From positions 1-49,127 of IMG/VR virus record IMGVR_UViG_3300045988_124399: a DNA stretch of 49,127 bases; one strand, given 5' to 3'. Below the pieces are notes generated by a model. That model searched no databases, had not been told where the DNA came from, and saw only the letters and a list, made by a program, of their open reading frames with translations. The position numbers and the translations under genes were made by a program. Positions within the stretch are counted from its first letter, which is position 1. Every line of letters begins with the position of its first letter. The DNA comes from a virus. Below, one piece after another: positions 1 through 41,063 of this stretch.

Positions 1-138
1 GTCAGCCTTGTAATTGTAGTAGTTGATAGAAACAATAAATAACATTTGGTTTATCCCCTTTCTTTTTATACTCTTATTATACCATAGATTCAGGATTTGT
101 CAATAGGTTTTTGAAAAAAATATTTATTCATCAGGGCT

Positions 139-373: not shown

Positions 374-727
374 TCTCCACACCTTGATTATTTCATCATC
401 TGCTATATCATCTGTGTCATTGTCGTTTATCCACAAAAGCAGAAAATCATTATCATCAATGGTCATATTCTCAACTTCCCATTGGTTGCCGCGTTCGTCC
501 AGTAGCGTGATGGTGTTACCATTTCGGGAAGAGACCTCTGCACCGATAAAGCGTATGCTTCCTCTCTCTGTACCAGCGCCACACCATTCATCTAATGCGG
601 TGAGGTCGTAGGACTGCGGCGCTTCCTCGCAGGCTTCCGCGGTAGTGTGGTCGTGGAATGGGCCGAAGAAAGATACGGAGAGAATGATGGCAATGGCCAT
701 GGTGATGATTTTGGAAACGTTCTTCAT
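362..727 (-). CDS. Secreted or membrane-anchored protein with an N-terminal signal peptide (standard code)
   Basis: 121-aa ORF. The N-terminus MKNVSKIITMAIAIILSVSFF is hydrophobic signal-like. Composition is GC-richer than the phage block. Reverse-complement GGAG precedes the start. Confidence 0.55.
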   Translation of the reverse strand: MKNVSKIITMAIAIILSVSFFGPFHDHTTAEACEEAPQSYDLTALDEWCGAGTERGSIRFIGAEVSSRNGNTITLLDERGNQWEVENMTIDDNDFLLLWINDNDTDDIADDEIIKVWREAY

Positions 728-749
728 TTTGTTTTACCTCTTTCTTACT

Positions 750-893
750 TTATAGGTTAGTGGCGATAGTGACAACAGCAATGAGCATAAGTGTGCTTGA
801 GATAGCTTTACCTATGCTCTTGCTATCTATGGCATAGATAAAATTATAGGCGCTTATAGCGGTAAGCACAATAATAGCAGCAATGATAGACAT
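750..893 (-). CDS. 47-aa hydrophobic small membrane protein (below the ORF-track length cut-off)
   Basis: Hand translation of the minus strand gives MSIIAAIIVLTAISAYNFIYAIDSKSIGKAISSTLMLIAVVTIATNL followed by a TAA stop. A GGAG Shine-Dalgarno sits about 9 nt upstream of the ATG. Confidence 0.4.
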   Translation of the reverse strand: MSIIAAIIVLTAISAYNFIYAIDSKSIGKAISSTLMLIAVVTIATNL

Positions 894-913
894 GGCATAT
901 GCTCCCCTCTTTG

Positions 914-938
914 AGCGAGTGGGTTAAACCCACTCGCT
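914..938. repeat. Perfect 25-bp palindrome AGCGAGTGGGTT-A-AACCCACTCGCT
   Basis: Read directly. It lies between the stop of 924..1397 and the start of the small membrane ORF. No U-tract follows on either strand. It looks more like an operator or recombination-type site than a terminator. Confidence 0.55.
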
Positions 939-1397
939 GAATAGCTCACTGATGAAGTCATCATGCACGTCATCAGGCAGTTGATCGATGGTGCACTCAT
1001 AGGTGCTTACCACGGTAAGCGATGAGCCATTCTCAAGGCTCTCGCGCTCAAACTTATCACGCTCGCCAGACGAGAGGAAAAATGCAGTATAATCATAGAC
1101 GTCTTCCCCATCATTGATGGAATAGTCCACCACCTTAAAGCGTGTTTTGTTCCAGAGGTTCGCTATGATGGACAAATCCATGGCCAGCTCTTCCTCGCGG
1201 CGGACAGCTTCGAGAGACGCCTTATACTTGCGCCATGCGGCTACCGTAAAGTCTCTTATACTACAGCCGATAAGACAATGGTATTCCTCTAAGTCTTTGA
1301 TAACGAGTTTGCGCCCCTCGTGCGCCATATTCCACGCATCTTCTGCCATTGCGTTAATGGTAGTAGCATCATACTTGCATAAGCCCTGAATTTTCAT
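924..1397 (-). CDS. Hypothetical protein (standard code, GC-richer cassette)
   Basis: 157-aa uninterrupted ORF with no recognisable motif. Confidence 0.5.
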   Translation of the reverse strand: MKIQGLCKYDATTINAMAEDAWNMAHEGRKLVIKDLEEYHCLIGCSIRDFTVAAWRKYKASLEAVRREEELAMDLSIIANLWNKTRFKVVDYSINDGEDVYDYTAFFLSSGERDKFERESLENGSSLTVVSTYECTIDQLPDDVHDDFISELFSEWV

Positions 1398-1460
1398 TGT
1401 GTAGCCCTTCCCGCGCTTTTTGCGCTATCGTGTTATGTGTATAGGTATGTCCCTGTGGGG

Positions 1461-1483
1461 GAGTGAGGGCTTGCGCCCTCACT
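1461..1483. other. Stem-loop GTGAGGGC-TTGC-GCCCTCAC overlapping the stop of 1479..1772
   Basis: 8-bp GC stem read directly. TTTGCAATCTTTGC follows on the plus strand. Confidence 0.4.
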
Positions 1484-1772
1484 TTGCAATCTTTGCAGTA
1501 ACGGAAGCCATGCGCGGCGCGCCGACTTTCTTGTACTTTTCAAAACACTCCGCATAAAGTTTCGGCGCTTTGTTGCGGAACATCACCGTATCGAGCGTTT
1601 CAGTAGCCTTGCCGCCCTTGCCAACGATAACAGTAAATTTATTGTAAGTAAAGGTAACGCTTTCGCCGTTAGCTTCCTCGCGGGCTTCTGCCTTGAGCAA
1701 TTCTAACTGTTCCTTGAGTGCGTCTATCTGCGCGGAAAGCTCACACATTTTTTTAATTTTGTTGTTCGTCAT
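1479..1772 (-). CDS. Hypothetical coiled-coil protein (start trimmed to MTNNKIKK)
   Basis: The ORF-track entry 1479..1826 has an internal ATG at 1772. On the minus strand AAGAGGA lies 8 nt upstream of that ATG. Confidence 0.45.
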   Translation of the reverse strand: MTNNKIKKMCELSAQIDALKEQLELLKAEAREEANGESVTFTYNKFTVIVGKGGKATETLDTVMFRNKAPKLYAECFEKYKKVGAPRMASVTAKIAK

Positions 1773-2201
1773 TTTGTAAATCCTCTTTTCATGTATTTTG
1801 CTGTTCGGTGTTCCGCCATTCAGCATGGTTACATGGTAGCAGATTCAGCCACGGAATACAATTGACAGATTGCACAAAGATTTGCTTTGTACGGGGCGGG
1901 CTTTTGTGCATCTTGACGAGCGCGGCACCCTTGCATCATACCTTTGTATTTTTATTCGCTGGAGAATGAATAAAACCTGCATAGAGGGGGGGTGTATTTC
2001 GGGAAAAATAAATTTTTATTTATCGTTTTTTCTTTTGCCTGGTCAAAACGCAATCTAAATCAATTTTCAATTTCAGATTACGAAGAATAATTTAAAATTT
2101 CAAATCACGATTTCTTTTTTCTACCTCTTTTAGGTTTTTCACCCCACATAAGAGTGTATAATCCAGAAGTAGCAGAATAAGTAGCTTTCTGCTGATACTT
2201 T

Positions 2202-2597
2202 TTAGCAACTGCCTTCAAGGGACTGAGTGGTTTCCGCATTTAATTTTTCCTCCATATATTCGATTAATTTATCTTTATATTTACAACTATCAATATATCT
2301 ATTAATAGTATCTATATTATAGTTTTCCATTAAGTGCTCTAATACATATTTGTATTTATTTAACTGATATTCTTCTTGTTCTTCTTTAGTGCTTAATTGG
2401 GCCTTTTCCGCGTCTGATAAAGGTCTGTAAGTAATCGTTCTTGATCCATTATCCTTTTGCTCAATACGTATTGTTTTAAATAATTTCCAATCTCTTACAA
2501 AAGGGTCTTTATCTCTTGTGGCGTTAAAATATTCTTGTTCTAATCTAAATATTACTGCGTCTATTCCTCTTACTTCAAAAGGCTGGTTCCATTTCAT
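2202..2597 (-). CDS. Hypothetical protein, third gene of a leftward AT-rich standard-code operon
   Basis: 131 aa from MKWNQPFEV. Its start overlaps the stop of the upstream gene (ATGA-type overlap). The stop is TAA. Confidence 0.5.
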   Translation of the reverse strand: MKWNQPFEVRGIDAVIFRLEQEYFNATRDKDPFVRDWKLFKTIRIEQKDNGSRTITYRPLSDAEKAQLSTKEEQEEYQLNKYKYVLEHLMENYNIDTINRYIDSCKYKDKLIEYMEEKLNAETTQSLEGSC

Positions 2598-2814
2598 CTT
2601 CAATATCCTCCCATTCAAATGTTCCATCATCTAATTCATATACAAATGCTTGTTTATAAAATGATGAAACAATTCCATCATTTGCGATTCCTTTTGGACT
2701 ATTTTTCGCATCATAGAAACAATTATAAACAATTAATCCTTGCGTTTCATATCGCGAAAAATCTACTGCCCTTCCCTCAAAATCATAATTATAAAATATG
2801 TTTAACAATAGCAT
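2575..2814 (-). CDS. Hypothetical 79-aa protein with acidic C-terminus, second gene of the leftward operon
   Basis: Continuous ORF translationally coupled to 2202..2597. Confidence 0.5.
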   Translation of the reverse strand: MLLLNIFYNYDFEGRAVDFSRYETQGLIVYNCFYDAKNSPKGIANDGIVSSFYKQAFVYELDDGTFEWEDIEDEMEPAF

Positions 2815-2856
2815 ACACTCATATTGTGCGATTGGCCATTTATTTAATTCTTTTTG

Positions 2857-2967
2857 CTAATTTGCCATTTTTTGGTATAATACCCAAAAGGCTTTTCTAT
2901 ATAACCATAAAAAAAGGAGTGATGCTACTAATGCACAACTCAATAATACAATAAAAATAATTTTCAT
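2857..2967 (-). CDS. 36-aa single-pass membrane peptide, first gene of the leftward operon
   Basis: MKIIFIVLLSCALVASLLFLWLYRKAFWVLYQKMAN. Reverse-complement AAAGGAG lies upstream. The ORF-track entry 2857..3051 is trimmed here because its 5-prime part is poly-A/T. Confidence 0.4.
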   Translation of the reverse strand: MKIIFIVLLSCALVASLLFLWLYRKAFWVLYQKMAN

Positions 2968-3000
2968 AAATACTCCTTTTCTTTTTTTTTTCTTATAATA

Positions 3001-3029
3001 ATAATAAAATAAAAATAAAGAAATGTCAA
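3001..3029 (-). promoter_or_regulatory. Leftward sigma-70-type promoter (TTGACA-17-TATTAT on the minus strand)
   Basis: The -35 element is the reverse complement of 3024-3029. The -10 element is the reverse complement of 3001-3006. The spacer is exactly 17 bp. It points into the 2967..2202 operon. Confidence 0.55.
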
Positions 3030-3111
3030 ATCGTGGAGCGTGATTGGGCAAAAGTTATTTGTTTTGTTAAAAAAATTTTTAAATATAAAAAGAAAAAATT
3101 TTAAATGAAAC

Positions 3112-3140
3112 TTGACAAAAAAAATTTTTTCGAGTATAAT
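3112..3140 (+). promoter_or_regulatory. Rightward consensus sigma-70 promoter TTGACA-17-TATAAT
   Basis: TTGACA at 3112-3117 and TATAAT at 3135-3140 with a 17-bp spacer. GGAGG at 3154-3158 and the ATG at 3165 follow. It is divergent from the promoter at 3001-3029. Confidence 0.7.
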
Positions 3141-3164
3141 ATAAATATAGACTGGAGGTAAAAA

Positions 3165-4220
3165 ATGATAAAACTTGATTATTCTTTACAAACTCCAGAA
3201 GAAAGAAATCAATTAGTCGAACAAATTTTGGCTGATAATCCAGATCCGCCTGAAAAGTATTTAGAAATTTTAGCAGACTATTTGGTTCTTTGTATGGAGA
3301 AACAAGAAAAAAAGGAGAAAAAATTATTAACTGATAATCGTATGGCTACAGTTAATAAGCGTGAGACTTCTTTTGAAAGTCTTGTTTCCCAACTCGAAAA
3401 TGGCGAAGATGGAATTTATAATTTAATTACAGATAATAGAAATACAATATTTCAACCACATATTACAATTACAAAAAAAGATTTAGAAGAGATACCAAGT
3501 TTAAATTAGTTAAGAGAAGCCATTAATGTTTGGGAGGCTAAATTAAAAGTAACAGAAGGTAAAGATGCTTTTGTTATTAAAAAGGCTCTTATTGAAATGC
3601 GTAAAGATTAGTATGTTATGAAAAATGCTTATCGTCGTCCAATAATGCCTACAAAATTAACCAGATCAAAGTCTTATATTCCATTAGATGATAAAACATT
3701 TATTTTTGATGATGATGGTTTTCCCATTCCTGATGGAATTAGTTTATTAAGACCTGAAATATGTTCTGCGGTTTTATGTAATTATTCCCGATTAAAGCAA
3801 GATAGTTGGGGTGAATACGATAAAGACTTATGGTATTTAATGGAGGATTTTGATAAGCTTTGTGATAAAGCTTTAGCTAATTATCCTCTTTATGATAAAA
3901 TCGTTGAATATAAAATTGATGGTTTACAAAATATTGACATTCAAGAGAAAATACAAATGGAATTTGGTATTAAACATAGTCTTGAATATATTTCAAGTTT
4001 ATGGCGTAATAAAATTCCAAAATTAATTGCTTCGACTGCGGAAGATGAATATTTAGATAATTATTATTTAAATGTTGAAAAAGGTAAATATAAAAAATGT
4101 AGTCGTTGTGGTAAAATAAAATTAGCTCATAATAAATATTTTAGTAAAAATAAAACAAGTAAAGATGGCTTTTATAGTATTTGTAAAAGTTGTCGAAATT
4201 CTAAGGCCAAAAAATCTTAA
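3165..4220 (+). CDS. Hypothetical protein with C-terminal Cys4 zinc ribbon; first gene of the recoded operon (2 in-frame TAG)
   Basis: ORFs 3165..3509 and 3618..4220 share one frame. The gap is open apart from TAG codons at 3507 and 3609. The stop is TAA. The motif CSRCG..KDGFYSICKSC is present. Confidence 0.6.
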
Positions 4221-4269: not shown

Positions 4270-5457
4270 ATGGCTGAAACATATTATTGCGAAAAATGTA
4301 ATCGTACAATGAATGGCACGGAATTCTATTCATCTAATAATTTAGAAAAATATCCTAATGATGGTAAATTTCCTCTGTGCAAAAAATGTATGACAATGCA
4401 CGTCGATAATTGGAATCCAGATACTTATTTATGGATTTTACAAGAAGCGGATGTTCCTTATGTTCCAGATGAATGGAATAAATTAATGGAAAAATATGGG
4501 CGCGATCCGCAGTCTATGACCGGTATGACAATTCTTGGACGTTATTTGTCAAAAATGAAACTCAAATAGTTTAAAGATTATCGTTGGAAAGATACAGAAT
4601 TTTTATAGTAGATGGCGAATAATAAATTAGAGCAAACTATGAAACGTCAAGGATATGATGCTCAATAGATTGCAACCGCTATTGAAAAAAGTTCTATTGC
4701 TATTCCAGAAGGAGAATTAAAAGAACCGGTTTATGCTCCACCACCTAATGCCCCTACGGAAGATTATTTCGCACAATAGAGTGGTAAAGTGGAACAAGAA
4801 TTAGACTTAACTGATGAAGACCGCACTTATTTAAGACTTAAATGGGGCAAAACTTATAAGCCTGAAGAATGGGTTAAGCTTGAATAGCTGTATGAAGAAA
4901 TGATGGCTTCTTATGATATTCAAGGTGCCGGACATAAAGATACGCTAAAATTAATATGTAAGACATCTTTAAAGGCAAATCAATTGATCGATATTGGTGA
5001 TATTGAAGGTTTCCAAAAGATGAGCAAAGTATACGATAGCTTGATGAAGTCTGGTAAATTTACCGCTGCTCAAAACAAAGCAGAATCAGGTGAATTTGTT
5101 GATTCAATTGGTGAATTAATTGAATTATGTGAAAAAGAAGGATATATTGAAAGATATTATGTTGAATAGCCACATGATAAAGTGGATTTAACTATTCAAG
5201 ATATGCAACGTTATACTCGCACTCTTATCGAAGATGAAACTAATATTAGCACAATGGTAGAAAAGGCTTTACGCGAAAATGCTAAAGAAGATGAAGAGAA
5301 AGCAAAGAACGCGGAAAGCGATATCGTTGATGATGCTGATTTAAGTATTGAAGAACTTGAAAAAACTATTAAAGATAGTGATTACGCGGATTTTGAGGAA
5401 TTTAAAGAATAGGAATCCGCGCAAGATAATGAGTTCTTATAGGGTTTGGATAAATAA
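4270..5457 (+). CDS. Putative small terminase / DNA-packaging protein by position, with N-terminal Cys4 zinc ribbon (9 in-frame TAG including a tandem TAG-TAG)
   Basis: Three track ORFs (4270, 4900, 5182) share one frame with only TAG between them. Two adjacent TAG codons sit at 4603-4608. The TAA stop overlaps the terminase ATG (TAATG). Confidence 0.4.
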
Positions 5458-7196
5458 TGGCATTACAAGATTTACTGTAGTTAAGTGATAACCGTAGAAA
5501 AATAGGTCTATCACCGGAACGAGTAGAAGCGGTAATGCCCACTATCCGCAAATACGTTGCCTTTTGGAGAGAATATCCTGATTTATTTGTAGATTTTATG
5601 GTGCGAGGAAGACGCACTGAAATAAAAGATGGAGAATTTAATTTTTATTTTTATTAGAGAGTATTTCTCCGTTCTGTTATGCGTTATTAGTATGTTTACG
5701 CGGTTTTCCCTCGTGCTTATTCTAAATCATTCTTGTCTGTTATGGCATTAATGATTAGATGTATTTTATATCCTGGTGCGCACTTGTTTGTTACTTCTGG
5801 AGGTAAAGAGCAAGGTGCTAGTATTCTTCATGATAAAGTTCAAGAAATATGTGAACTTATTCCAAGCTTTAATCGAGAAATTGATTGGAATCGAGGAAAA
5901 ACTCTTGAAGGAAAAGATAAAGTTAGATATGTGTTTAAAAATGGTTCAGTTTTGGATAACCTCGCAGCTCGTGAAAGCACTCGTGGTCAGCGTCGTCATG
6001 GTGGACTAATGGAAGAATGTGTCGGTATTGATGATGCTATTCTTCGTGAAGTTATTATTCCTGTTATGGCAATTTCTCGTAGAGCTAAAGATGGCACTAC
6101 CAATGAACAAGAGCCATTAAACAAATCACAAATCTATATTACTACTGCTGGTTATAAGGGCACATTCCCTTATGATAGACTTATTGGTTTCTTAGTTCGT
6201 ATGGTGACTTAGCCTGATCGTTGTATGGTATTGGGTGGAACATGGCGAACTCCTGTTGCGGTAGGATTGCAAAGTAAAACATTTATTACTGACCAAAAGA
6301 ATGAAGGAACTTATAATGAAGCTTCATTCGAACGTGAATATGAATCTAAGTGGTCAGGAACTGTTGAGGATGCTTTTTTTAATGGAGAGCATTTTGATAG
6401 AAATAGAAAATTATTATAGCCTGAATATGAAGCTTCTGGACGCGCGGGCGCACAAGCTTATTATGTGCTTTCTGTAGATGTAGGTCGTAAAGGATGCGAT
6501 TCAGTAGTTTGTGTATTTAAAGTAACACCACAAGCTCAAGGTCCAGCTATTAAATCATTAGTAAATATGTATACTATGTCAGATGACCATTTTGAAGATT
6601 AGGCTATTAAATTAAAGAAATTATTTTATAAATATAAAGCTAAAACTTTAGTTATAGACGGTAATGGTTTAGGTATTGGACTTTTAGATTATATGGTAAA
6701 ATCTCAAAATGATGAAGATGGTGAATTTTTACCTGATTTTGGTGTTGAGAATGATGATGATGGATATTATAAAAAATATCGCACACCAAATACTCAATTT
6801 GATGCTATGTATGTTATTAAAGCAAATGCTCCAATAAATACTGAATGTCATGCTAATGCTCAGACTCAATTACAAGCGGGTAAGGTAAAATTCTTAATAG
6901 ATGAGAGAACAGCTAAAGAAAAATTATTAGCTACTCAAAAAGGTTCAAAAATGACTTCTGAACAAAGGGCAGATTATTTAAAACCATTTACTTTAACCTC
7001 CATATTAAAAGAAGAAATGATGAATTTACGCGAAGAAAACGAAGGTATTAATATTATCTTAAAATAGGCAAATCGCGGAATTCGTAAAGATAAATTTTCG
7101 GCTTTTGAATATGGATTATATTATTTAAAACTTGAAGAAGATAAAAAGAAAAAACGTAAAAAGTTTAATGCGGCTGATTGGTGCTTTTTAAATTAA
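5457..7196 (+). CDS. terL: Terminase large subunit (at least 7 in-frame TAG)
   Basis: The N-terminal region has a Walker-A-like VFPRAYSKSF preceded by YVAFWREYPDLFVDFM. The C-terminus has RNase-H-like nuclease motifs (YVLSVDVGRKG and TLVIDGNGLG) and EYESKWSG. The frame is continuous from 5457 to the TAA at 7194. Confidence 0.85.
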
Positions 7197-7208
7197 GGAG
7201 GGTGGAAA

Positions 7209-7565
7209 ATGCGTGCTTCAAGAGGAGAAATTAAAATTGAAGAAATCTTAGAAGAAGCAGGACTACCTTTTAAAATGGAATATATCTTTCCAGATTTAAA
7301 AAGCCCAAGCGGGCGTCCGCTTCGTTTTGATTTTGTTATATTTGATGATGATGGAAAAATTGATTTCATTATTGAGTATTAGGGAAAATAGCATTATGAA
7401 GCCAGTTCTAAATTTGGCGGAAAACGCGGTTTATACCAGTAGCAATATAATGATAATCAAAAAAGACGTTTTTGCGCTTTACATGATTTTAGATTAATAG
7501 AGATTCCATATACCGACGAAAACCTTATTTCTTATGATTATATAATGAAATTAGCAGGTTATTAA
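7209..7565 (+). CDS. Small nuclease-like protein (homing-endonuclease / PD-(D/E)XK-like) inserted between terminase and portal
   Basis: 118 aa. AGGAGG precedes the start. Motif RFDFVIFDDDGKIDFIIEYQGKQHY has a D...E.QGK pattern with 3 in-frame TAG. Its position is typical of endonuclease insertions. Confidence 0.35.
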
Positions 7566-7578
7566 AGGAGGTGGAACT

Positions 7579-9228
7579 TTGGATACGCAAGATCGTAATG
7601 ATTAGATTCACGCTAAAGGTTTTGATATTTATAATGGTCGTTATGAATATAATTATAATGACACTATGGATTATGCCAATAGAAAAATAAAAGTTGGCAC
7701 AAAAACTTTAGATGATGCTATTTTAAAACTTGGTGATTATAGTAAGATTAGATACCCAGGTCAAACTCGTATTATCACAAAACCTGATGTGCTTCGCGCG
7801 CTCGCAGAAAGGGACTTAAATGCTTTGCGATATATTTCTAATCTTTATTATGATATAAGTGGTGTATATCAACGAGTTTGTAATTATGTTGCTTTTTTAT
7901 ACCGCTATGATTGGTATATTGCAGCCGAAACTTATGATGATAATGTAAAAGAAGAAAAAGTTTTAAAAGATTTTTATAGAATGTTGAATTATTTTGATAA
8001 TAGTTATATTAAAAAGATTTGCGGAGATATTGCTTTACAAGTCGTTAAAAATGGATGCTATTATGGATATATAGTTCCTTCAGAGAAAAATCTAATTTTA
8101 CAAGAATTACCAGTTAGATATTGTAGAACACGTTATAGTGTAAATAATACCCCAGTTGTCGAATTTGATATGCGATTTTTTGATACTTTTAGAGATATGA
8201 ATTACCGTTTAAAAGTATTAAAATTATTCCCAGAAGAATTTGCTAAAGGTTATGTTTTATATAAGCAAGGAAAACTTGCTTTAGAAGACGCGGTTGGATG
8301 CTAGCATACTGGTAGTTGGTATGTTCTTGAGCCAGAAAATTGTATTAAATTTAATATTAATAATAGTGATGTTCCTATTTTTGTAAATTCCATTCCTACT
8401 ATTATGGATTTAGATGCAGCGCAAGATCTTGACCGCAAGAAACAAATGTAGAAGTTGCTTAAAATTTTAGTCCAAAAGCTCCCAATGGATAAAAATGGTG
8501 ATTTGATATTTGATGTTGATGAAGCCAGAGATATCCATAATAATGCCGTTTAGATGTTATAGAGGGCTATTGGAGTAGATGTTTTAACTACATTTACTGA
8601 TGTAGATTCTATTGATATGTCTGATAAAAATACTACTACAACGACAGATGATTTAGCTAAAGTTGAACGTAGTGTTTATAATTCGTTAGGTATTTCATAG
8701 AATTTATTTAATACTGATGGTAATATGGCTTTAGAAAAATCAGTGTTAAATGATGAATCTACAATAAGAAGTTTAATTTTATAGTTTAATATATTCTTTA
8801 ATAGAATTATTGAAAAAAAGAGTAGTAATAAGAAATATAATTTTAGATTTTATTTATTAGAAACTACTTAGAATAATTATCAAACACTTTCTAAAATGTA
8901 TAAAGAACAAGCGCAAATGGGACAATCAAAGCTATTGTCTTAGATTGCTCTTGGACATTCATAGAGTTTTATTCTTAATGCAGCTCATTTTGAAAATGAG
9001 ATTTTACATTTAAGTGAAATTATGATTCCTCCTCTTATGAGTTCTACTATGGGTAGTGAAGATATTTTGGGTTTAAAAGATTCATCATCTAATAATAAAA
9101 CTCAAAATAATTCAGGAAGTTCAGGGTCTGGAACTGCTAAAGCTTCTAATGGCGAGGCAGGACGTCCGGAAAAACCTGATGATTAGAAAAGTGAAAAAAC
9201 TATTCAAAATAAAGAAGCAATGAAATAA
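7579..9228 (+). CDS. Portal protein (about 11 in-frame TAG; TTG start)
   Basis: 549 codons directly downstream of terL. AGGAGGTGG lies 7 nt upstream of the TTG. One frame runs to the TAA at 9226. The call rests on synteny and size. Confidence 0.5.
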
Positions 9229-9237
9229 GGAGGATTT

Positions 9238-10821
9238 ATGAAACATACAAGTATTAAATTAAATACACCTTGTGAGTTTATAAATATAACTCCTGTAAAT
9301 CCTTTAATTTCTAAATGCCAAATTAAGGTTTGTTATGTAGATGATAAACCTAATCGTAACAAAAGCGTAATTACTAAAGATGTAGCGACTGAGATGGCTA
9401 ATAGCCTTCCCGGCAGTCCTATTGTTGGCTTTTTTAATGAGAATGCTGAAGATTTTGAAGAACATAATAGGATAATTGAATTATCTAACGGCGAATTTAG
9501 AATGAGAGATAATACTCGCCCTTATGGTTTTGTTGATCTTGGAGCTAAAGTTTGGTTTTAGAAATTTTTGGATGATGGTGTTGCCGAACGTGAGTATTTA
9601 ATGACTGAAGGTTATTTGTGGACTGGTTAGTATCCTGAATGTAAACGTGTAGTTGATAAAGGGAATAATCATTCTATGGAGCTTGATGAAAAAACATTAA
9701 ATGCTACGTGGGCAAAAGATAGTAATGGAAAGCCTTAGTTTTTTATTATAAATAAGGCAATTATTTCTAAACTTTGTATTTTGGGAGAAGAAAATGAACC
9801 TTGTTTCGAAGGCTCCCAAATCAATGTGAATTTTTCATTCGATGATGGTTTTAAGAACACTTTGTTCTCCATGATGAATGAACTTAAAGAATTTATGAAA
9901 GAAGGAGGACCCAAAGTGTTTACACAATATGCTGTTGAAATTGGCGATAGTTTGTGGAATTCTCTCTGGTCTTATGTTGAGACTAAGTATCCTGGCGAGC
10001 CTAGTAGTTATTGTTCTATTTATCGCATTGAAGGCGTTTATGAAGATGCTGGACAAAAGTTTGCTATTCTTCAAAATAGACAAGACCAAAAATATTATCG
10101 CATGGACTTTTCTCTTACCGATGTAGAAGGCTTTGTTCCTTCTGATGCTTTAACTGAAGTAACTAAGTCTTATACTCCGGCAGCAGAGCCTCAGTTTGCT
10201 CTTGCTGATATTGAAGCTTTTGAGACTGATTATGCTTCAAAGAAAAAGGCTGAAGAAGAGGACAAAAATAATAAATCTAACGACCAAAACCCTGATAATA
10301 AATCAGAGGGCAATGATAATAAAAAGAACCCTGATAATGGGGAACCCTCTAATAAGTCTGATAAAGGCGACAATGGTGAGAATGATGATAAAAAGAAAAA
10401 GAAGAATTATTCTCTTGAGGACGTTGTTGAATATACTGAACTTAAAGCTCAGTATGATGAATTACAGACTAAATTCGCAGCTCTTGAAACTGAAAATAAT
10501 AGCTTGAAAGAACAAATTGCTCCACTTGCTGAATTTAAAAATGCTGCTGAGAAGAAAGATAAAGAAGATATGATTGCTAAATTCTATATGCTTTCTGATG
10601 AAGATAAGGCTGATGTTGTTGAAAATATTGATAAATATTCTCTTGATGATATTGAAGCTAAATTATCTGTTATTTGTGTTCGCAACAAGGTGAGTTTCGA
10701 CCTTGACGAAAATAATAAGCCCAATGGTGCTACTACTTTTAATTTGAACGATAATGGTTCAGAAGATGATGATATGCCCGCTTGGGTGAAGGCGGCTTTT
10801 GCTACCGCCAACAAAAATTAA
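9238..10821 (+). CDS. Prohead scaffolding protein, possibly protease-scaffold fusion or nested arrangement (3 TAG, all in the first ~170 codons)
   Basis: ORFs 9238 and 9781 share a frame joined through TAG. There is a long acidic/Lys low-complexity segment plus a coiled coil (KAQYDELQTKFAALETENNSLKEQIAPL). Confidence 0.5.
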
Positions 10822-10838
10822 TAAGGAGGACATACTAA

Positions 10839-11756
10839 ATGTTTAAAGACTTTTTGAATAAGAATCTTCCTATTAAGTCTCAGGCAAAGTATGTTGAGTT
10901 TGGTTACGGTCAGGTCGAGCCTAATCACCTTTCCGCACAAAGAAATGCTCAAATCTATGCTCAACTTCCTGCCAATAAAGACATTGAGATTCTTGAAAAC
11001 GGTCAGTTTGTAAAGTATGACTATGCTGCTAATGGTAATGGTATCGGCGAAGTCAACTTCACTGGCGAAGGCGAATGGATGCTCGTTTATAACGAGATTA
11101 AGCTTTATCGTGATCATTATGATGGCAGTAAGCAGTGGGATTGCGAATTTGCTATGATTAAAGATGACTATCAGGCTCGTGTTTATAGCCCTTATGATTG
11201 GGAGCATACCGAGGTTGAATATGGTGGTCGTTTCTGGAACGGCGTTGATGAAAAGGGTCAAACCTATAAGTTAATCAATCAGACTGTTTCCGCAGATCAG
11301 GGCTTAAAGACTGTAACTATTGCTGGTCGTGTTTATGATGTCGATGAAGCCGGCAAGTTTACTTATGATGGTAATGAATATACTCTTGATAGTAATCATC
11401 AGGTTGCTAATGTTCCTGTAAAGTATTACTATGATAAGCTTCTTACTGATGTTCCTGATATGTATGAAATGAATTGGACTAATGATCCATATCATAAGTT
11501 AGGTATCTATCATGAGAAGTTCATGGAATCTGGTACTTCTATGGTTCCTCGTGTATTTAAGACCATGATTGGTGATCTTTATACTACTAATATGATTAAT
11601 GAAGAGACTCTTGCTGTTGGAGATAAGCTTTCTCCTTCTGCTGCTACAAAGGGTATTCTTAGCAAAACTGGCGACGATTCAATGACCTGGCAGGTTGTTA
11701 AGGTTTATACTATGCCTGATGGTCAAAAGGGCGTCAAGGTAATGCGTATTAAGTAA
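10839..11756 (+). CDS. Capsid-associated structural protein (TAG-free, GC3-rich codons)
   Basis: 305-aa uninterrupted ORF with a strong AAGGAGG Shine-Dalgarno. It sits immediately upstream of the capsid gene. It has many CAG/GGT/GCT codons and no TAG. Confidence 0.45.
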   Translation: MFKDFLNKNLPIKSQAKYVEFGYGQVEPNHLSAQRNAQIYAQLPANKDIEILENGQFVKYDYAANGNGIGEVNFTGEGEWMLVYNEIKLYRDHYDGSKQWDCEFAMIKDDYQARVYSPYDWEHTEVEYGGRFWNGVDEKGQTYKLINQTVSADQGLKTVTIAGRVYDVDEAGKFTYDGNEYTLDSNHQVANVPVKYYYDKLLTDVPDMYEMNWTNDPYHKLGIYHEKFMESGTSMVPRVFKTMIGDLYTTNMINEETLAVGDKLSPSAATKGILSKTGDDSMTWQVVKVYTMPDGQKGVKVMRIK

Positions 11757-11773
11757 GAAAGGAGAAAAGGATA

Positions 11774-12880
11774 ATGTTAGATAAAAATAATTTAATTGCT
11801 CTTATGAAGCAAGTTGCTAAGGCTGATCCTTCTGCTCCTGTTGCTTATAGTTATGAGGGAAAAAATCTTAGTTATGAAGCCTTAAATGAAACTCTTCGTA
11901 ATGAAATGAATGAGTTGGCTGGCACTTACGCTCTTTATCGTGAAAATAAGAATCTTATTTTCTCTATGATTGAGCAGACTCTTGATGAGGTTCTTCCTAA
12001 GAAAGTTATTCAGCAATATGATCAGTTTGCTGAGGTTAAGACTTTCGCTCAGGGTGATAAGCCTATCTTCCGTCGCCCTCTTAATAATCGTGCTCGTGCT
12101 AAGCAGTTTGTAACTCGCGTTGGTCTTGCTGGTATTTATGAAGTCTTCAAGCTCGGACCTAAAGAGAATGAAGCCTTTGAGGTACGTACTAGCGCTATCG
12201 GCGGAGCTGCTCAGATTGGCTTCGAAGAGTTCCTTGATGGTCGTGTTGATTTCGGTGAAGTAACCAAGATCATCATGGATGGTATGGATGAACTTATTTA
12301 TAAAGAAGTTGCTGCTGCTCTTAGATCTTCTATCAATCAGCTTCCTCCTGCTAACCGCGTTGCGGCTGCCGGATTTGATGAAGCTGCTATGGATCGTTTG
12401 ATCACTATTGCTTCTGCTTATGGCACTCCTACTATTTATTGTACTTATGAGTTCGCTGTTAAGATGATTCCTCATGAGGCTTGGAGATATACTGAAGCTA
12501 TGAAGAACGAACTTTGGAATAATGGTCGTCTTGCTACTTACAAGGGCACTAAGGTTATTATTCTTGAGCAGGGCTTTGAAGATGAAACCAATACTCGTAA
12601 GGTTATTGATCCTGGTTATGCTTGGGTTATTCCTACGGGCGCTGATGGTAAACCTGTAAAGATTGCTTTCGAAGGTGGCACTATTGTTGACGAGTTCAAT
12701 AATTATGACCGTTCTCGTGAGATTCAGGTTTACAAGAAGGTTGGCGTAGTTTGTATGCTTGCTAATAACATCTGTGCTTATGTTGATACTTCACTTCTCG
12801 GTCAGATGTATACTTGGAATTATGATGGAGTCACCGGTAAGGTTGTCACTTATGATGGCCGTCTTGATGGCAAAATCTAA
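11774..12880 (+). CDS. Major capsid protein (TAG-free)
   Basis: 368 aa at the synteny position after portal and scaffold. A strong terminator follows. Codon usage is that of a highly expressed gene (CGT, GCT, GGT, CAG) and there is zero TAG. Confidence 0.55.
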   Translation: MLDKNNLIALMKQVAKADPSAPVAYSYEGKNLSYEALNETLRNEMNELAGTYALYRENKNLIFSMIEQTLDEVLPKKVIQQYDQFAEVKTFAQGDKPIFRRPLNNRARAKQFVTRVGLAGIYEVFKLGPKENEAFEVRTSAIGGAAQIGFEEFLDGRVDFGEVTKIIMDGMDELIYKEVAAALRSSINQLPPANRVAAAGFDEAAMDRLITIASAYGTPTIYCTYEFAVKMIPHEAWRYTEAMKNELWNNGRLATYKGTKVIILEQGFEDETNTRKVIDPGYAWVIPTGADGKPVKIAFEGGTIVDEFNNYDRSREIQVYKKVGVVCMLANNICAYVDTSLLGQMYTWNYDGVTGKVVTYDGRLDGKI

Positions 12881-12900
12881 TTTAATATAAATTATTCCAT

Positions 12901-12943
12901 GGGGAGAAGGGATTAAACTCCCTCTCCCCATATTTTTGTTTTA
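12901..12943 (+). terminator. Rho-independent terminator after the capsid gene
   Basis: GGGGAGAAGGGA-TTAAAC-TCCCTCTCCCC followed by ATATTTTTGTTTT. Confidence 0.75.
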
Positions 12944-12966
12944 TGAGTAAAAGGAGAAATTGAATA

Positions 12967-13560
12967 ATGATTAATAATGAAGATATTTATAATGTAAAAA
13001 ATAGAAGCACTAGTGTAGTTGTTTATACTATTCCTGATACTAATTTGCGTCGTGAGTTTGCGCCCGGTGAGACTAAGCGTATTCCATTTGGTGAGCTAGA
13101 GAAGTTAACTTATCAGGCAGGCGGCCGCGAATTAATTGCTAATTTTTTACAAATTTTAGAGCCAGAAGTAACTCATACTCTTAATGTTCATACTGAACCT
13201 GAATATAATATGTCAGAGCAACAAGTTGCTGATTTAATTCTTAATGGCTCATTAGATGCTTTCTTAGATGCTCTTGATTTTGCTCCTATTGGAATTATTG
13301 ACTTAATCAAGAATTTATCTGTTAGCCTTCCTATTACTGATATTAATAAGCGTAGAGCTTTGAAGGAAAAAACTGGGTTTGATGTTGATAAAGCTATTGC
13401 TAATGATATCGCTAGTAAAGAAGAAGATACTATTGTAGAGAAAGAACCCGCTGCTAAGCGCCGTGTAGTAAGAGAAGAACCTACTACTCAAGGTCGTCGC
13501 ACAAGCGGTTCTGGATATAAAGTAATTAATAAAACCGAGGAAACTTCCTCCAAGAAATAA
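12967..13560 (+). CDS. Hypothetical head or neck structural protein (TAG-free)
   Basis: 197-aa uninterrupted ORF. AAAGGAGA precedes the start and the stop is TAA. Confidence 0.4.
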   Translation: MINNEDIYNVKNRSTSVVVYTIPDTNLRREFAPGETKRIPFGELEKLTYQAGGRELIANFLQILEPEVTHTLNVHTEPEYNMSEQQVADLILNGSLDAFLDALDFAPIGIIDLIKNLSVSLPITDINKRRALKEKTGFDVDKAIANDIASKEEDTIVEKEPAAKRRVVREEPTTQGRRTSGSGYKVINKTEETSSKK

Positions 13561-13579
13561 TTTATAGGAGGGCGATTAA

Positions 13580-14152
13580 GTGGGAACATTATTCTCAACT
13601 GTTTATAATCGCTTTCTAAACAAGGTTACTGATGATATGTATCTGGAATTGACTCCTGAAGATACTCTAAGAGATTTATAGAATCTTATAATAGATGCTA
13701 TTCCTGGATTTGAATTTCCGCGAAAAAATCTTTTAGATTATAATTTAGATGTCGCTACTATTAATGAATCTGACGCTATGCCGGATGATTTTATTGTAGG
13801 AACAGTATGGGGGGAACTTCCAGAACCGGGTGAAGAACCTCAAGTTTTAGTTGATAGATCCAGTTTTAATTGTGATCTAACTGAAGAAGAAATTAATATT
13901 TTAGCTATTTTAATGATGTGCGGTTGGACGCAAAGACAAGTCACTTCAATTGAGAATACTCGAATGAAATATAGTGGCTCTGATTTTAAATTTACTTCTT
14001 AGGCAAATCATCTATCAAAGCTATTGAATTTATTAGGTGAATGCCAAAGACAATCTCACCATATGTAGCGTTTATATAAACGCAGACGTTTAAATAATAA
14101 AGGTGAGTATGAATCTAATTGGGATGTATTTAAAAGTCGATATGATTACTAA
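13580..14152 (+). CDS. Head-tail connector / head completion protein (GTG start, 3 TAG)
   Basis: AGGAGGG lies upstream of GTG 13580. The frame is continuous to the TAA at 14150. The call is by position. Confidence 0.4.
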
Positions 14153-14450
14153 ATATAATTTTGATATTCCAATAGAGAGTATAAAAGTAAATTGTTTGCG
14201 CTTAACCAATCAATTATGGAAATTAATTCCAATGCGCGAAAATAATGAAGATTGGCATAAATAGCTAGAAACTGTTATAAATGAAATTGTGGGGTTTAGT
14301 GTAATTTTTAACGCTGAACCCCTTTATTTATAGTTATTAAATAAACTTGAGGGATTGTAGAATCAAGATACTGATTTTAATTTTTATCGTAAGACTGTGT
14401 TTGAAACGATCAGTCTTTTGTAGGAGATAAATTATGGCGTCAGGGTTTGA
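14142..14450 (+). CDS. Small neck/adaptor protein (4 TAG)
   Basis: The ATG overlaps the upstream stop. The 102-aa frame ends in TGA and overlaps the next ATG. Confidence 0.35.
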
Positions 14451-15498
14451 TTATAGTAGTAAGCAACCTTTTAGATTATAGCAAGGTCGCTTAGGAATTT
14501 ATGATAAGCCACCCTTTAAAGGTAGCCCTGTTGAAGGCGTTAATTATATGGCGGTTCGGCTCGGTCAGATGGGCGGAAATCGCCAACAAGAGCGTATGAT
14601 TTTATCTAAGCGCAGAAGTTTAGATAGAGCAGTATGGAATTCATACCAAGCCGCAGAAATTATTAAATAGGATGCGGAATATAAAAAACCTATTAGGTGT
14701 TTGATTAATCCTAACAAATTGAAATAGGATTATGATGATAAGATTTTGTCTGTTGGAAATGAATATTAGTTTAAACCAGGAGATATTTTTGAATGGTGTG
14801 GAACTAATACCTATTGGATTTGTTATCTTTAGGATTTGACTGAATTAGCTTATTTTAGAGGAGATATTAGAAAATGCTCTTATAAAATAAATTGGGTAGA
14901 TGAGGGAGAGAAAAAGTCTACTTATGCAGCAATTCGTGGTCCTGTAGAAACGAAAATTAATTATATTCAAAAACATGAAATTAGTGTAGATATTCCTAAT
15001 TATTCATTAAATATTTTGATGCCTAAGAATAAAGATACTTTGAGTTATTTTAAGCGGTATACAAAATTTTATTTAGATAGTTAGGATGATGGAGATAATT
15101 TAATTTGTTGGCGTGTTGAAGCTGTAGATTCCATAAGTATGCCTGGTATTTTAGAAGTTAATGCGACTGAATATTATATTAATGAGTAGGAAGATAATTT
15201 AGAGGATAAGACTGTTGGTTCTTTAATTGCGGAACCGATTGATCCGAATCCTACAACAACTGATATTATAGGGGAAACGTTTATTTTTCCAAAGAAAACT
15301 TATACTTATTATTTTGATGGTGAAGTTGTTTTAGAATGGAAAATAAAAAATAATAAAAAGTTGCCGGTTTCTTTAAAAATTATTAAAGAAGCAAAAAAAC
15401 CAACAGTTGAAATAAGTTGGACTTCTGGATATAGTGGATAGTTCGATTTACTATATGGAGATTATAAAAAAACGATAATTGTTCAATCATTGTTTTAA
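14434..15498 (+). CDS. Hypothetical structural protein (about 7 TAG)
   Basis: Frame 1 is continuous from ATG 14434 through track ORF 14836 to the TAA at 15496. Confidence 0.4.
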
Positions 15499-15513
15499 GG
15501 AGAAAAAGGTGTT

Positions 15514-16095
15514 ATGAAGATTGATGGAGTAAAGATTCCTAAATCTAGTTTCTTATCTATGGAAAAGGATTTAGAAATTGTTGTAAATCATTTATGTAAA
15601 AATGAAAGATTAAAACGTTTATTGTATTATACTACCCCAGATGCTATAGACAAGCCAAATCTGAGTGATGAACAAATGATTTAGTTATTTAAGAAAAATA
15701 TTAAATTAATTCCTAAATTATATGTTGATGGTAGTGTTTTAAATTATGTCGTAATTAGTTTTGATAATTTTATTCCTAATGATACAAATCCAGAATTTAG
15801 GGATAATATTATTGAATTCGATATAGTTTGTCATTATGATTAGTGGCATTTAAAAGATTATTAGTTGCGTCCTTATCGCATTGCTGCGGAAATAGATAGT
15901 ATGATAGATAAAACACATTTAACAGGTATTGGAAAATTGGAATTTCTTGGTGGTAACCAAATTATTTTAACTGATGAATATGCTGGTTTATGTCTTATGT
16001 ATACTGCTATTCATGGTGAAGAAGATAAGAAATTTATGCCAAATCCCAATGATGAAGAAAGATTTTTAAAAGACTTTTAGGATAGAACTAAATAA
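15514..16095 (+). CDS. Hypothetical neck / tail-completion protein (4 TAG)
   Basis: AAGGAGAAAAAGG lies upstream. The frame is continuous through ORF 15865. The TAA overlaps the next ATG. Confidence 0.4.
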
Positions 16096-16820
16096 TGGAT
16101 TTACGTTTAGGCTTAATGTGCGGAATTGATTTACCAATACCAGAACTTTAGGCTACAATTCATTAGCCAAAGATAAAAGAGATTGCTTTTGTCGGTGAAA
16201 AAGATTTCTTCCTTGGGGTTCAATGTCTTTGTATTGATAAAAATATAATAGCCAATTAGGGCGAAAGTCTTTTAGTTAATACGAATAATTTTTAGATATT
16301 TATGACAATGATGAAAGAAAAAGAGATGGCTGAAAAAAAAGATTCAGTCATAAATGTTTTTTCTCTTATATTTCCAAAATATAAAACTTTATTTACTCCA
16401 AGATCTATCATTTTACAAAGTGATACTTAGATAATGATTGATGATTCAAATTTTGAAATTCTTTAGGAATATTTAAAGGAAATATTTTGTTTTAAATCTT
16501 CTATGTCTCAAGAGCTGGGTTTTAACCCTGCTAATGATACTGCTAAAAAAATTGCAGATAAATTAATGAGAGGTAGATAGAGAGTTGCTGAATTAAATGG
16601 TTCAGCTAATGTTAGTATATTTAGTTAGTATCTTTCAATGCTTACTGTAGGTTTAGATTCAATGTCTCTACAGGATTTAATGGATTTAACAATGTTCCAA
16701 CTTTTTGACCTTGTTGAAAGATATTAGCTTTATATTAATTGGGATATTGATATTCGGTCAAGGCTAGCAGGCGGAAAACCTGATGGCAAACCGGAGAACT
16801 GGATGAAAAATATCCATTAA
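16095..16820 (+). CDS. Hypothetical tail-completion protein (about 9 TAG)
   Basis: Frame 0 is continuous to the TAA at 16818. It lies immediately upstream of the major tail protein. Confidence 0.35.
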
Positions 16821-16844
16821 ATTTATTAAGGAGGAAAATAACCT

Positions 16845-17843
16845 ATGAAATTTGGTGTTCGCGAAATTTGCGATGTCGTTTTAAAGGCTAAGGCAACTCA
16901 GAAGGTTGGTAATAAAATCTTTTATAGAAATGAGCCAGTTATTTATTTCGACACTTTAAAAACTTCCAGCATGGAAGGCGCTGCTACCACTGTATATGCA
17001 CAGGGAGGACGCGGTAATGCTCGTTTAGTAGCCTGGGAAGGTGAGCGTACTGTTACCTTTACAATGGAAGATGCTCTTATTTCTCCAGAAGGTTTCATGA
17101 TTCTTTCTGGTGCTGGTCTTGTTGAAGCAAGTGCTACTAGTACTATTAAACAGCACGTTACTGAAACTGTAGATAAATCACAAATTGATAGTACAACTAC
17201 TGAAGGACAAGTTACTATTCGTGTTTCTAAAAAGCCCTATCTTCCAACAGACGAACAAGAGAATTTTGCTTATGTTATGTTTGTCAAAGATGGCGAAATT
17301 ATCACTGAGCCTTTTATTCCTGTCCATGAGGAGTTAACCGCTAAGAAAGATACTAATGGTAATGAATATTTTGAATTAACTCTTAAAACTCCACATGATG
17401 ATTATATTGCTGGTACAGGTAATTATACTTTTAATGAAAAGAACGGCCTTCCAGCGGCTGCAGCATATGATAGTGCTATTGTTGATTATTATACTGAAAA
17501 GGCTAGCGGCGCTCAACAGATTGAGATTACTGCTGATAAATTCGGTGGTAACTATTATCTTGAAGCCTCTACTTTATTCCGTGATCAAAATGGTGTTGAT
17601 ATGCCTGCTGAATTTATTATTCCTAACTGCAAGATTCAGTCTAACTTCACCTTTACAATGGCTTCTTCTGGTGATCCTTCTACTTTCACCTTTACTATGG
17701 ATGCTTTCCCTGACTATACTCGTTTTGACCACAGTAAGAAAGTTCTTGCGGCAATTCAAATTATTGAGGAAGGCGGAGCTAGTGACCTCCATCGTACTAT
17801 GACTGCTCACGACGAGGCTCACAATGCTTCTTTCACTGACTGA
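16845..17843 (+). CDS. Major tail (tube) protein (TAG-free)
   Basis: 332 aa. AAGGAGGA precedes the start. The protein is Thr/Ser-rich and beta-rich. It sits ahead of the chaperone/tape-measure region. It has highly-expressed codon usage and no TAG. Confidence 0.5.
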   Translation: MKFGVREICDVVLKAKATQKVGNKIFYRNEPVIYFDTLKTSSMEGAATTVYAQGGRGNARLVAWEGERTVTFTMEDALISPEGFMILSGAGLVEASATSTIKQHVTETVDKSQIDSTTTEGQVTIRVSKKPYLPTDEQENFAYVMFVKDGEIITEPFIPVHEELTAKKDTNGNEYFELTLKTPHDDYIAGTGNYTFNEKNGLPAAAAYDSAIVDYYTEKASGAQQIEITADKFGGNYYLEASTLFRDQNGVDMPAEFIIPNCKIQSNFTFTMASSGDPSTFTFTMDAFPDYTRFDHSKKVLAAIQIIEEGGASDLHRTMTAHDEAHNASFTD

Positions 17844-18016
17844 TGATTATTAAAGGTAAACGTTGGAACATCCAAAAGAAAACTGAGGAAGTAAAAAACA
17901 ACAATACCAAGAAAGAGAAAAAAGCTGTTAAATCTATTAAGGTTCCTGAAGAGCCTGTGGTTTCTGAAGAAGAAATTGATGAGGTCAGCAAATTCTTTAA
18001 TTTAGATAAAGAATAA
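17843..18016 (+). CDS. 57-aa Lys/Glu-rich ORF overlapping the major tail protein stop (TGATG), or a frameshift extension of it
   Basis: MIIKGKRWNIQKKTEEVKNNNTKKEKKAVKSIKVPEEPVVSEEEIDEVSKFFNLDKE. It has no Shine-Dalgarno of its own. It ends just before the terminator. Confidence 0.25.
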   Translation: MIIKGKRWNIQKKTEEVKNNNTKKEKKAVKSIKVPEEPVVSEEEIDEVSKFFNLDKE

Positions 18017-18022
18017 TTTTAT

Positions 18023-18058
18023 GGGAGAGAATAGAAATATTCTCTCCCATTTTTTTTA
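18023..18058 (+). terminator. Rho-independent terminator
   Basis: GGGAGAGAATA-GAAA-TATTCTCTCCC followed by TTTTTTTT. Confidence 0.75.
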
Positions 18059-18081
18059 TTTAGGGAGAAAGGAGAGATAAT

Positions 18082-19188: not shown

Positions 19189-19190
19189 AA

Positions 19191-19219
19191 TTGACTAAAT
19201 AGAAAATTTTTTGTATAAT
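19191..19219 (+). promoter_or_regulatory. Consensus sigma-70 promoter TTGACT-17-TGnTATAAT
   Basis: TTGACT at 19191-19196 and an extended -10 TGTATAAT at 19212-19219 with a 17-bp spacer. It drives 19247..19780. Confidence 0.65.
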
Positions 19220-19246
19220 ATAATAAAGAGTAAAAGGAGATTAATT

Positions 19247-19780: not shown

Positions 19781-19825
19781 TTAAATTATTTAATTTAATT
19801 AATTTTTTAAAGTCATTAGAGTAAT

Positions 19826-19870
19826 GGGGATAAGAGTATTTTATTACTCTTATCCCCTTTTTATTTTTAT
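19826..19870 (+). terminator. Rho-independent terminator
   Basis: GGGGATAAGAGTA-TTTTA-TTACTCTTATCCCC followed by a T-run. Confidence 0.75.
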
Positions 19871-19909
19871 TTTGCAAAGTAAAAATTAAGAGAGAAAGGA
19901 GATTTTTTG

Positions 19910-41049: not shown

Positions 41050-41063
41050 AGGAGTGAAAAAGA

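Follow-up and report, generated by a model that had tools for sequence, protein, structure and literature searches.

The window analysed here is a 49,127-nucleotide (nt) stretch of viral DNA (positions 1 to 49,127 of IMG/VR record IMGVR_UViG_3300045988_124399), and the element of interest is a pair of divergent promoters that lie back to back between positions 3001 and 3140. These promoters are best understood as a bidirectional promoter junction, conserved among relatives, at which the two main transcription blocks of the phage meet, marking the boundary of an early and a late module and not operating as a switch; the probability of this reading is estimated at roughly 0.7. The rightward promoter leads into genes for a 351-amino-acid (aa) zinc-ribbon protein, a YonG-like protein, the large terminase and the structural proteins, all of them rich in TAG codons. 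The leftward promoter leads into a three-gene operon that encodes a 130-aa membrane protein with one in-frame TAG, a 131-aa orphan protein and a 44-aa basic peptide.

In the model proposed for the junction, host RNA polymerase carrying sigma-A would fire both junction promoters, as well as the many promoters of the early gene array on the leftward side, without the help of any phage factor. The TAG-free genes of the array would be translated at once in the unmodified host and would serve as a host-takeover module, and the full-length 351-aa and 130-aa products would appear only once TAG is decoded as glutamine. The junction promoters would form a separate class, co-regulated through an element made of runs of A followed by runs of T (AnTn). 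The coordinates of the features are collected in Table 1.

Table 1. Features of the promoter junction and of the blocks on either side, in window positions
Feature	Position	Strand	Remarks
Consensus leftward promoter TTGACA-16-TGnTATAAT	76-103	-	belongs to early array running off the left end of the window
44-aa basic protein gene	2105-2239	-	C-terminus KRGRKKK; overlaps 3' end of 131-aa gene
131-aa gene	2202-2597	-	no TAG; Shine-Dalgarno GGGAGGA inside upstream gene; 23-nt overlap
130-aa gene	2575-2967	-	N-terminal transmembrane helix plus ~80-aa domain; TGA stop; supported by homologues and alleles
In-frame TAG, codon 37 of 130-aa gene	2857-2859	-	
Shine-Dalgarno AAGGAG of 130-aa gene	2973-2978	-	
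Leftward sigma-A-type promoter TTGACA-17-TATTAT	3001-3029	-	11/12 matches
AnTn tract A7T5	3069-3080		tracts spaced 24 bp start-to-start
AnTn tract A6T4	3093-3102		
AnTn tract A8T6	3117-3130		
Rightward sigma-A/sigma-70-type promoter TTGACA-17-TATAAT	3112-3140	+	12/12 matches
First rightward gene, 351 aa, C-terminal zinc ribbon	3165-4220	+	PHROG 5767
YonG-like protein (PHROG 3314) and large terminase	4270-7196	+	9 and 7 in-frame TAGs

The divergent promoters and the AnTn tracts

Both promoters had been proposed in an earlier sequence-only reading of this DNA, and both proposals hold: the matches are those given in Table 1, and each element is conserved in relatives of the phage. The plus-strand promoter is followed by a Shine-Dalgarno sequence (GGAGG, 3154-3158) and an ATG at 3165, and the minus-strand promoter by its own Shine-Dalgarno sequence and an ATG at 2967, with each ATG lying 25-35 nt past the -10 hexamer. 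With a 17-nt spacer required, six sites in the window match at 11/12 or better, compared with a mean of 1.7 in shuffled sequence. IMG/VR contains 475 relatives of the 351-aa protein, on contigs that reach ~200 kb, and both near-consensus promoters are kept in 50 of the 53 distinct regions that lie upstream of its gene. Among these relatives (their loci are numbered with the prefix L) the hexamers are conserved, and spacers and flanks diverge. The plus-strand promoter sits 52-59 nt before the ATG and the minus-strand promoter at a variable distance. The gap from one -35 hexamer to the other ranges from 0 to 85 bp, and the 82-bp inter-promoter stretch of the window is therefore not conserved as such. 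Conservation weighs most in showing that the two elements are real promoters, and together they make up a well-supported regulatory junction.

The sequence-only reading had also described some 80 bp of palindromic, A/T-rich DNA between the promoters and had proposed a search for operator repeats within it. Two AnTn tracts (A7T5 and A6T4) lie in the inter-promoter stretch and a third (A8T6) in the spacer of the rightward promoter; the palindromic tracts are real and enriched at the junction, and the length of the gap is not a conserved property. The entire 49-kb window contains only four tracts with at least five A followed by at least four T (A5+T4+), and three of them are those at 3069-3130. 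Of the 166 such tracts in 53 loci, 107 lie within a 180-nt stretch at the junction, where 3.5 would be expected (an enrichment of ~30-fold). The spacer carries a tract in 41 of 50 plus-strand and 26 of 50 minus-strand promoters, with extra copies located between the promoters, and among the extended -10 array promoters listed for L001 the tracts are absent, save at the junction promoter itself. The A/T palindromes are a genuine cis-element specific to the junction, and the junction promoters seem to form a class apart, with AnTn in or next to their spacers and, for the most part, no TGn extension such as the array promoters have. Co-regulation of the pair through the tracts is probable, by way of either intrinsic bending or an A/T-binding protein. 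AnTn tracts are intrinsically bent DNA, and bending is as good a reading of them as operator function. As a separate observation, another near-consensus promoter (TTGACT-17-TATAAT at 19191-19219, plus strand) resembles those of the junction in that its spacer contains A4T6; it either overlaps the start of the open reading frame (ORF) at 19199-19780 or sits immediately upstream, ahead of a giant gene of 2981 aa.

The relation of the promoters to the genetic code can be judged from relatives in which the late genes are not recoded. In L034, L066/L068/L071 and L073-L075 three or four late genes at the junction, among them the homologues of the 351-aa, YonG-like and terminase genes, lack TAG and are intact ORFs in the standard code, and the divergent promoter pair is kept in these loci. 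Apparently some lineages of the phage family use the standard code and others are TAG-recoded; in L066 there are ORFs terminated by TAG. Furthermore, in the cultured Enterococcus phage VRE9_1, which uses the standard code, the homologue of the 351-aa gene (40% identity) is preceded by TTGACA-17-TGcTATAAT, with no divergent pair because the upstream gene is on the same strand. The same pair in relatives whose late genes here lack TAG and the promoter in VRE9_1 argue that this promoter architecture is older than the recoding and independent of it.

The leftward operon

The leftward transcript had been described as encoding a 36-aa membrane peptide and a separate 79-aa protein, each uninterrupted in the standard code. 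This description has to be replaced by a single 130-aa gene with an in-frame TAG. The 36-aa ORF (2857-2967) ends in TAG and shares its frame with the 79-aa ORF (2575-2814), with 14 sense codons between them, and a good Shine-Dalgarno sequence is present at the 36-aa start and none at the 79-aa start. For the 130-aa product, with glutamine placed at the TAG, 47 homologues are present in the databases, and most of these are full-length calls in which position 37 is Q. The same in-frame TAG occurs in the DNA of L001-L003, and an in-frame deletion in L004/L005 removes the TAG codon and joins the helix to the domain as one standard-code ORF. More distant relatives have a member of this family as their first leftward gene, 115-153 aa in length and open throughout with no TAG; the family shares the N-terminal transmembrane helix and the domain signature DFSxYE...DGxxxW. 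Codon 37 is TAG in 16, CAG in 2 and CAA in 1 of 19 distinct close alleles, and single alleles carry TAG at codon 32, 38 or 106. Variable sites in linker codons 38-51 are distributed 1/1/8 over codon positions 1/2/3, a third-position bias which argues that the linker is translated in the 130-aa frame. The full-length homologues, the alternation of TAG, CAG and CAA, the linker variation and the deletion allele together lead to the conclusion that the two ORFs are one gene, evidently for a single-pass membrane protein that needs TAG to be read as glutamine. One conjecture is that this membrane-anchored early protein has a role at the envelope, such as exclusion or the masking of a receptor.

The 131-aa gene fared as the sequence-only reading had it, being uninterrupted and coupled to the gene upstream (no TAG, with the overlap given in Table 1). 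None of its homologues falls below 79% identity; they are called at 131 aa and confined to one close clade, and the gene is deleted in L004/L005. An exhaustive HMMER search against 1.84 billion representatives recovered essentially its own clade (its own cluster and fragments); beyond that cluster, the only matches were a 125-aa protein (37% identity) and a 27% match, in several stretches, to an 1872-aa protein. By these searches the 131-aa protein is a clade-restricted orphan. The structure-based homology check proposed for the leftward proteins was run on this protein. The AlphaFold2 (AF2) model of the 131-aa protein, with a predicted local distance difference test (pLDDT) score of 78.7, consists of helices and a beta hairpin and has no significant fold match in PDB or BFVD. 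The AF2 model of the 130-aa protein, built from a 36-sequence alignment (pLDDT 54), is confident for the transmembrane helix only and was set aside for that reason.

The third gene of the operon, a conserved 44-aa ORF, had been missed. It is called in L001/L002 and occurs in 39 loci, some of them from lineages at 50-57% identity, which makes it the most widely conserved of the three, and in L080-L083 it adjoins the junction. Its C-terminus resembles an AT-hook, and the peptide is a possible candidate for a binder of the AnTn tracts. The peptide is 100% identical in most close relatives, ends in KRGRPKK in the clade of L026-L032 and is also present in L045. No terminator-like fold was detected downstream of the 44-aa gene (z = -0.17), and none of the 130-, 131- and 44-aa proteins has a significant match in Pfam, PHROGs, PADLOC or NCBIfam.

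In some relatives the first leftward position is occupied by other genes. In L078 the membrane protein gene is replaced, directly 3' of the leftward promoter and ~109 nt upstream of the 351-aa homologue, by a gene for a 354-aa release factor of the release factor 2 (RF2) type (Pfam PCRF and RF-1, SPF motif) without in-frame TAG. This position fits early expression of code-change machinery from the leftward side; across the window and the related loci, RF2 was found in this one relative only. The first leftward gene of L063 and L070 encodes a FolD-like methylene-tetrahydrofolate dehydrogenase/cyclohydrolase of 257-263 aa, with three and one in-frame TAGs, respectively.

The early array and the partition of TAG

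To judge from protein alignments, the phage, of ~195 kb, reads TAG as glutamine. When TAG is treated as a sense codon, the long-ORF content of the plus strand rises from 9,081 to 15,856 codons, with up to 60 in-frame TAGs per ORF. The 351-aa gene has TAG at codons 115 (3507-3509) and 149 (3609-3611), which confirms the earlier proposal that the rightward transcript uses TAG as sense from its first gene. In the alignment of this protein with its relatives TAG falls in invariant glutamine columns at positions 97, 115, 149, 255 and 260 (numbered along the 351-aa protein), which is the reason for assigning glutamine to the codon. Such in-frame TAGs in conserved genes, at columns that hold glutamine in relatives, are the mark of code-15 recoding.

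Leftward of the operon the relatives show an extended early array. The L001 region that matches the window promoter at 76-103 belongs to a multi-promoter array with 25 small genes on the same strand; over 10 kb it contains 24 promoter matches in which no hexamer has more than one mismatch, 19 of them at 11/12 or 12/12 and mostly of the extended -10 type (TGnTATAAT), together with 23 terminator-like sites. The outer part of the array was obtained by a protein-seeded fetch, after a walk by exact pattern gave no match. As seen in relatives, the array runs ~17 kb from the junction, with ~45 tiny genes and ~40 promoter matches, before the strand flips; there is nearly one TTGACA-17-TGnTATAAT promoter per tiny gene, and bidirectional terminators are numerous. 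One array product of L001 (18485-18937, where the array is seen at L001 positions 9900-20393) has a MazE_antitoxin Pfam match.

The array is nearly devoid of TAG. The leftward genes of L001 have one in-frame TAG in 2289 codons, that of the 130-aa gene, and no TAG stops, compared with 33 TAGs in 3164 codons, over eight genes, on the rightward side; another ~10 kb of array sequence is without in-frame TAG. The first ~17.5 kb of L087 has ~40 promoter matches on the plus strand, and its 25 called genes are free of TAG; the similar array of L093 has two TAGs, in one of 32 genes. By a crude gene caller applied to 64 distinct loci, the ratio TAG/(TAG+CAA+CAG) is 0.10 on the left versus 0.27 on the right, i.e. 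2.7-fold lower, and TAG-carrying genes make up 19% on the left versus 81% on the right. TAG-free early genes are thus found in the array, and the exception is the junction-proximal 130-aa gene. The sequence-only reading had placed the border between a standard-code leftward operon and a recoded rightward operon at the promoters themselves. The contrast between a TAG-poor left and a TAG-rich right stands, but the leftward unit is not purely standard-code because its 130-aa gene carries an in-frame TAG. The partition of early and late code is real but graded, and its edge lies beyond the first leftward operon, near position 2100.

Several points weigh against an early/late boundary of this kind. 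Leftward genes of L023-L030, L036 and L039 contain several TAGs, making the partition a tendency and not a rule. The absence of TAG from the array depends on gene calls in relatives, and the window holds only ~3 kb of the array, part of which is a GC-richer insertion. The leftward promoter of the window itself has no AnTn in its spacer, the tracts lying upstream of it. Searches of the window and of 27 related loci (~30 kb of array plus junction in the relatives) turned up no suppressor tRNA, and the window as a whole yielded no tRNA genes or Rfam families. Promoter activity and timing are read from sequence and conservation alone, and the host phylum solely from terminase relatives and the style of the promoters and Shine-Dalgarno sequences.

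The alternatives to a module boundary can be weighed against the same body of evidence. Chance occurrence of the hexamers and A/T palindromes, in an intergenic region of 27% G+C, is scarcely credible. At a loose threshold 47 promoter-like matches occur in an 8-kb region, compared with the 36.6 of shuffled sequence, and A/T runs are common in such DNA; however, the two matches at 12/12 and 11/12 are both correctly placed before a Shine-Dalgarno sequence and an ATG, the hexamers persist down to 70% protein identity as their surroundings diverge, and the enrichment of AnTn tracts at the junction recurs across lineages. The sequence-only reading had likened the layout to a genetic switch, and a lysis-lysogeny or maintenance switch would have the leftward genes expressed in the standard code in an unsuppressed lysogen and the recoded lytic genes expressed after a code change. 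Such a switch might look like this pair of divergent promoters, with A/T palindromes inside and between them; the leftward region is strongly depleted of TAG, superinfection exclusion would suit a small membrane protein in first position, and a role of this kind has been proposed for recoding in the Garnet and Topaz prophages (Borges et al., 10.1101/2021.08.26.457843). Nonetheless, a switch is very improbable. Its first leftward gene would itself need TAG as a sense codon, and the same promoter pair is present where the late junction genes have no TAG; for these two reasons the junction is not a code-separating lysogeny switch. The suggestion that the leftward trio serves lysogeny, toxin-antitoxin or defence functions also lost its footing: no helix-turn-helix (HTH), repressor, integrase, toxin-antitoxin or defence match was obtained for the leftward proteins with Pfam, PHROGs, PADLOC and NCBIfam, including no repressor or Cro-type gene flanking the promoters (Pfam, PHROGs and NCBIfam for the 130-, 131- and 44-aa proteins) and no toxin-antitoxin or defence model for the trio (PADLOC and Pfam). 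The 131-aa gene is clade-specific and dispensable, and no integrase or lysogeny module was seen in the window or in the ~20-30 kb around the junction in relatives. These relatives are viral contigs of 145-200 kb with no host flank in the regions examined, and a leftward array of tiny genes with many promoters is typical of early or host-takeover regions in lytic development.

Two further proposals would assign a regulatory function to particular elements of the junction. The TAG at codon 37 could be a programmed sensor of the code state, yielding a 36-aa membrane peptide before the code change and the 130-aa protein after it, with different functions. The codon sits right after the transmembrane helix in the 16 clade alleles that carry it, the host-type promoter would allow transcription before any code change, and in-frame stops have been argued to delay some products (Borges et al., 10.1101/2021.08.26.457843). 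A sensor is unlikely, however, with CAG or CAA at this codon in 3 of the 19 close alleles, with alleles that have TAG elsewhere (codons 32, 38 and 106) instead or additionally, with an in-frame deletion that removes codon 37 altogether, and with divergent homologues that lack TAG. This allele pattern is as expected of neutral exchange among glutamine codons. The other proposal, doubtful and only a little less so than the sensor, is that the AnTn tracts are operators at which the 44-aa peptide switches both promoters, and that the TAGs in the 351-aa "sigma-like" gene are a translational timer that delays the late genes. If true, this would be a compact circuit coupling the timing of transcription to the state of the genetic code. 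The 351-aa protein does match PHROG 5767, labelled "sigma factor", with E = 3.5e-54; neither a sigma factor assignment nor sigma-70 regions 2 and 4 found support in the Pfam, NCBIfam and PDB sequence profile searches, and the label is treated as unverified for this reason. The boundary between early and late modules is the reading preferred here, and it corrects the tempting picture of a promoter switch that divides two codes: the partition is gradual and is not the purpose of the promoter pair.

Relation to known phages and further observations

The idea of standard-code early and recoded late genes has already been published, and the present locus is another example of it. Borges et al. (10.1101/2021.08.26.457843) described early genes compatible with the standard code alongside recoded structural and lysis genes, found RF2 in the TAG-recoded Lak and Agate phages, and proposed a role of recoding in lysogeny for small prophages. 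What is new here is the AnTn-marked bidirectional promoter found family-wide, the length of the array together with its freedom from TAG, and the correction of the 36-aa and 79-aa ORFs to a single recoded gene. Like the recoded phages of that study (Lak, crAss-like, Phass-1), the phage uses TAG for glutamine in structural and packaging genes and has early-type genes without in-frame TAG, and one relative has a TAG-free RF2 gene; unlike in those phages, no suppressor tRNA was found near the junction, and the partition is unsharp, with a recoded first leftward gene. The lineage is not placed in any of the named recoded clades. Its terminase is 45% identical to that of Phass-1; Phass-1 was considered as a counterpart and set aside, since it is annotated in the standard code and showed neither a homologue of the 351-aa gene nor a divergent pair near its terminase.

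Other systems resemble one side of the junction or the other. The early array resembles the host-takeover arrays of large Bacillota phages, e.g. the terminal-redundancy module of SPO1, in which many very small genes on one strand are likewise combined with strong sigma-A promoters and many terminators. Unlike that module, the present array adjoins the packaging module and not a terminal repeat, and it is TAG-free within a recoded genome. In the lambda PR/PRM region, too, promoters stand back to back and palindromic elements recur inside and between them, but here neither side has a repressor or Cro-type gene, the inter-promoter distance varies (0-85 bp among the relatives), and the elements are simple AnTn tracts in place of the 17-bp operators of lambda. 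The late block resembles those of SPbeta, Geobacillus virus E3 and phages of the Enterococcus VRE9 type, which share the Pfam domains YonB, YonD_N and YonG_N (precomputed matches on the genes of relatives), the gene order 351-aa protein, PHROG 3314 protein and terminase, and a consensus host promoter before the 351-aa homologue; unlike the present phage, they use the standard code.

The host is probably a gut member of the Bacillota. Judged by the terminase, the closest cultured phages, at 33-47% identity, are the recoded gut phage Phass-1, Geobacillus virus E3, phages of Alicyclobacillus and Bacillus, and Enterococcus phages of 134-142 kb; a closer match (60%) lies on a 12-kb human faecal contig. 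The phage family is abundant in the gut, and the AnTn-bearing promoter, the ~17-kb TAG-free array and the L078 RF2 gene offer material for experiments on timing in recoded phages. A lesson for annotation is that small ORFs beside recoded blocks need a read-through check before they are called micropeptides.

Within the part of the array that lies inside the window, a cassette at 727-1986 (minus-strand ORFs of 47, 157 and 115 aa) has 45-47% G+C in surroundings of ~29% G+C. It is absent from L001 and L004, has 91-98% aa identity in L007, L011 and L014, and is diverged in L013, L021 and L047; it looks like a recently exchanged variable cassette. The possibility that positions 1-2000 are host flank was rejected, as the GC-richer cassette lies inside the phage array and is common to some relatives.

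On the other side, the YonG-like gene and the large terminase, the third rightward gene, open a packaging and structural block in which TAG accounts for ~1% of codons. Between the terminase and the next large gene, an ORF of ~120 aa (7197-7565, plus strand) with three in-frame TAGs contains the stretch FDFVIFDDDGKIDFIIEYQGKQH, which by eye resembles a PD-(D/E)xK nuclease motif; the ORF may encode a small homing-type endonuclease. Antisense promoter matches at 11/12 occur on the minus strand at 7736-7764 and 7652-7679, within the plus-strand gene 7549-9228. Some long late genes (10839-13560, 16842-17843, 19199-19780 and 41058-42725) are TAG-free amid heavily recoded neighbours; some of them have a G+C content of 0.38-0.40, and the YonB-like gene is among them. 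Possible explanations are avoidance of TAG in strongly expressed structural genes and recent acquisition.

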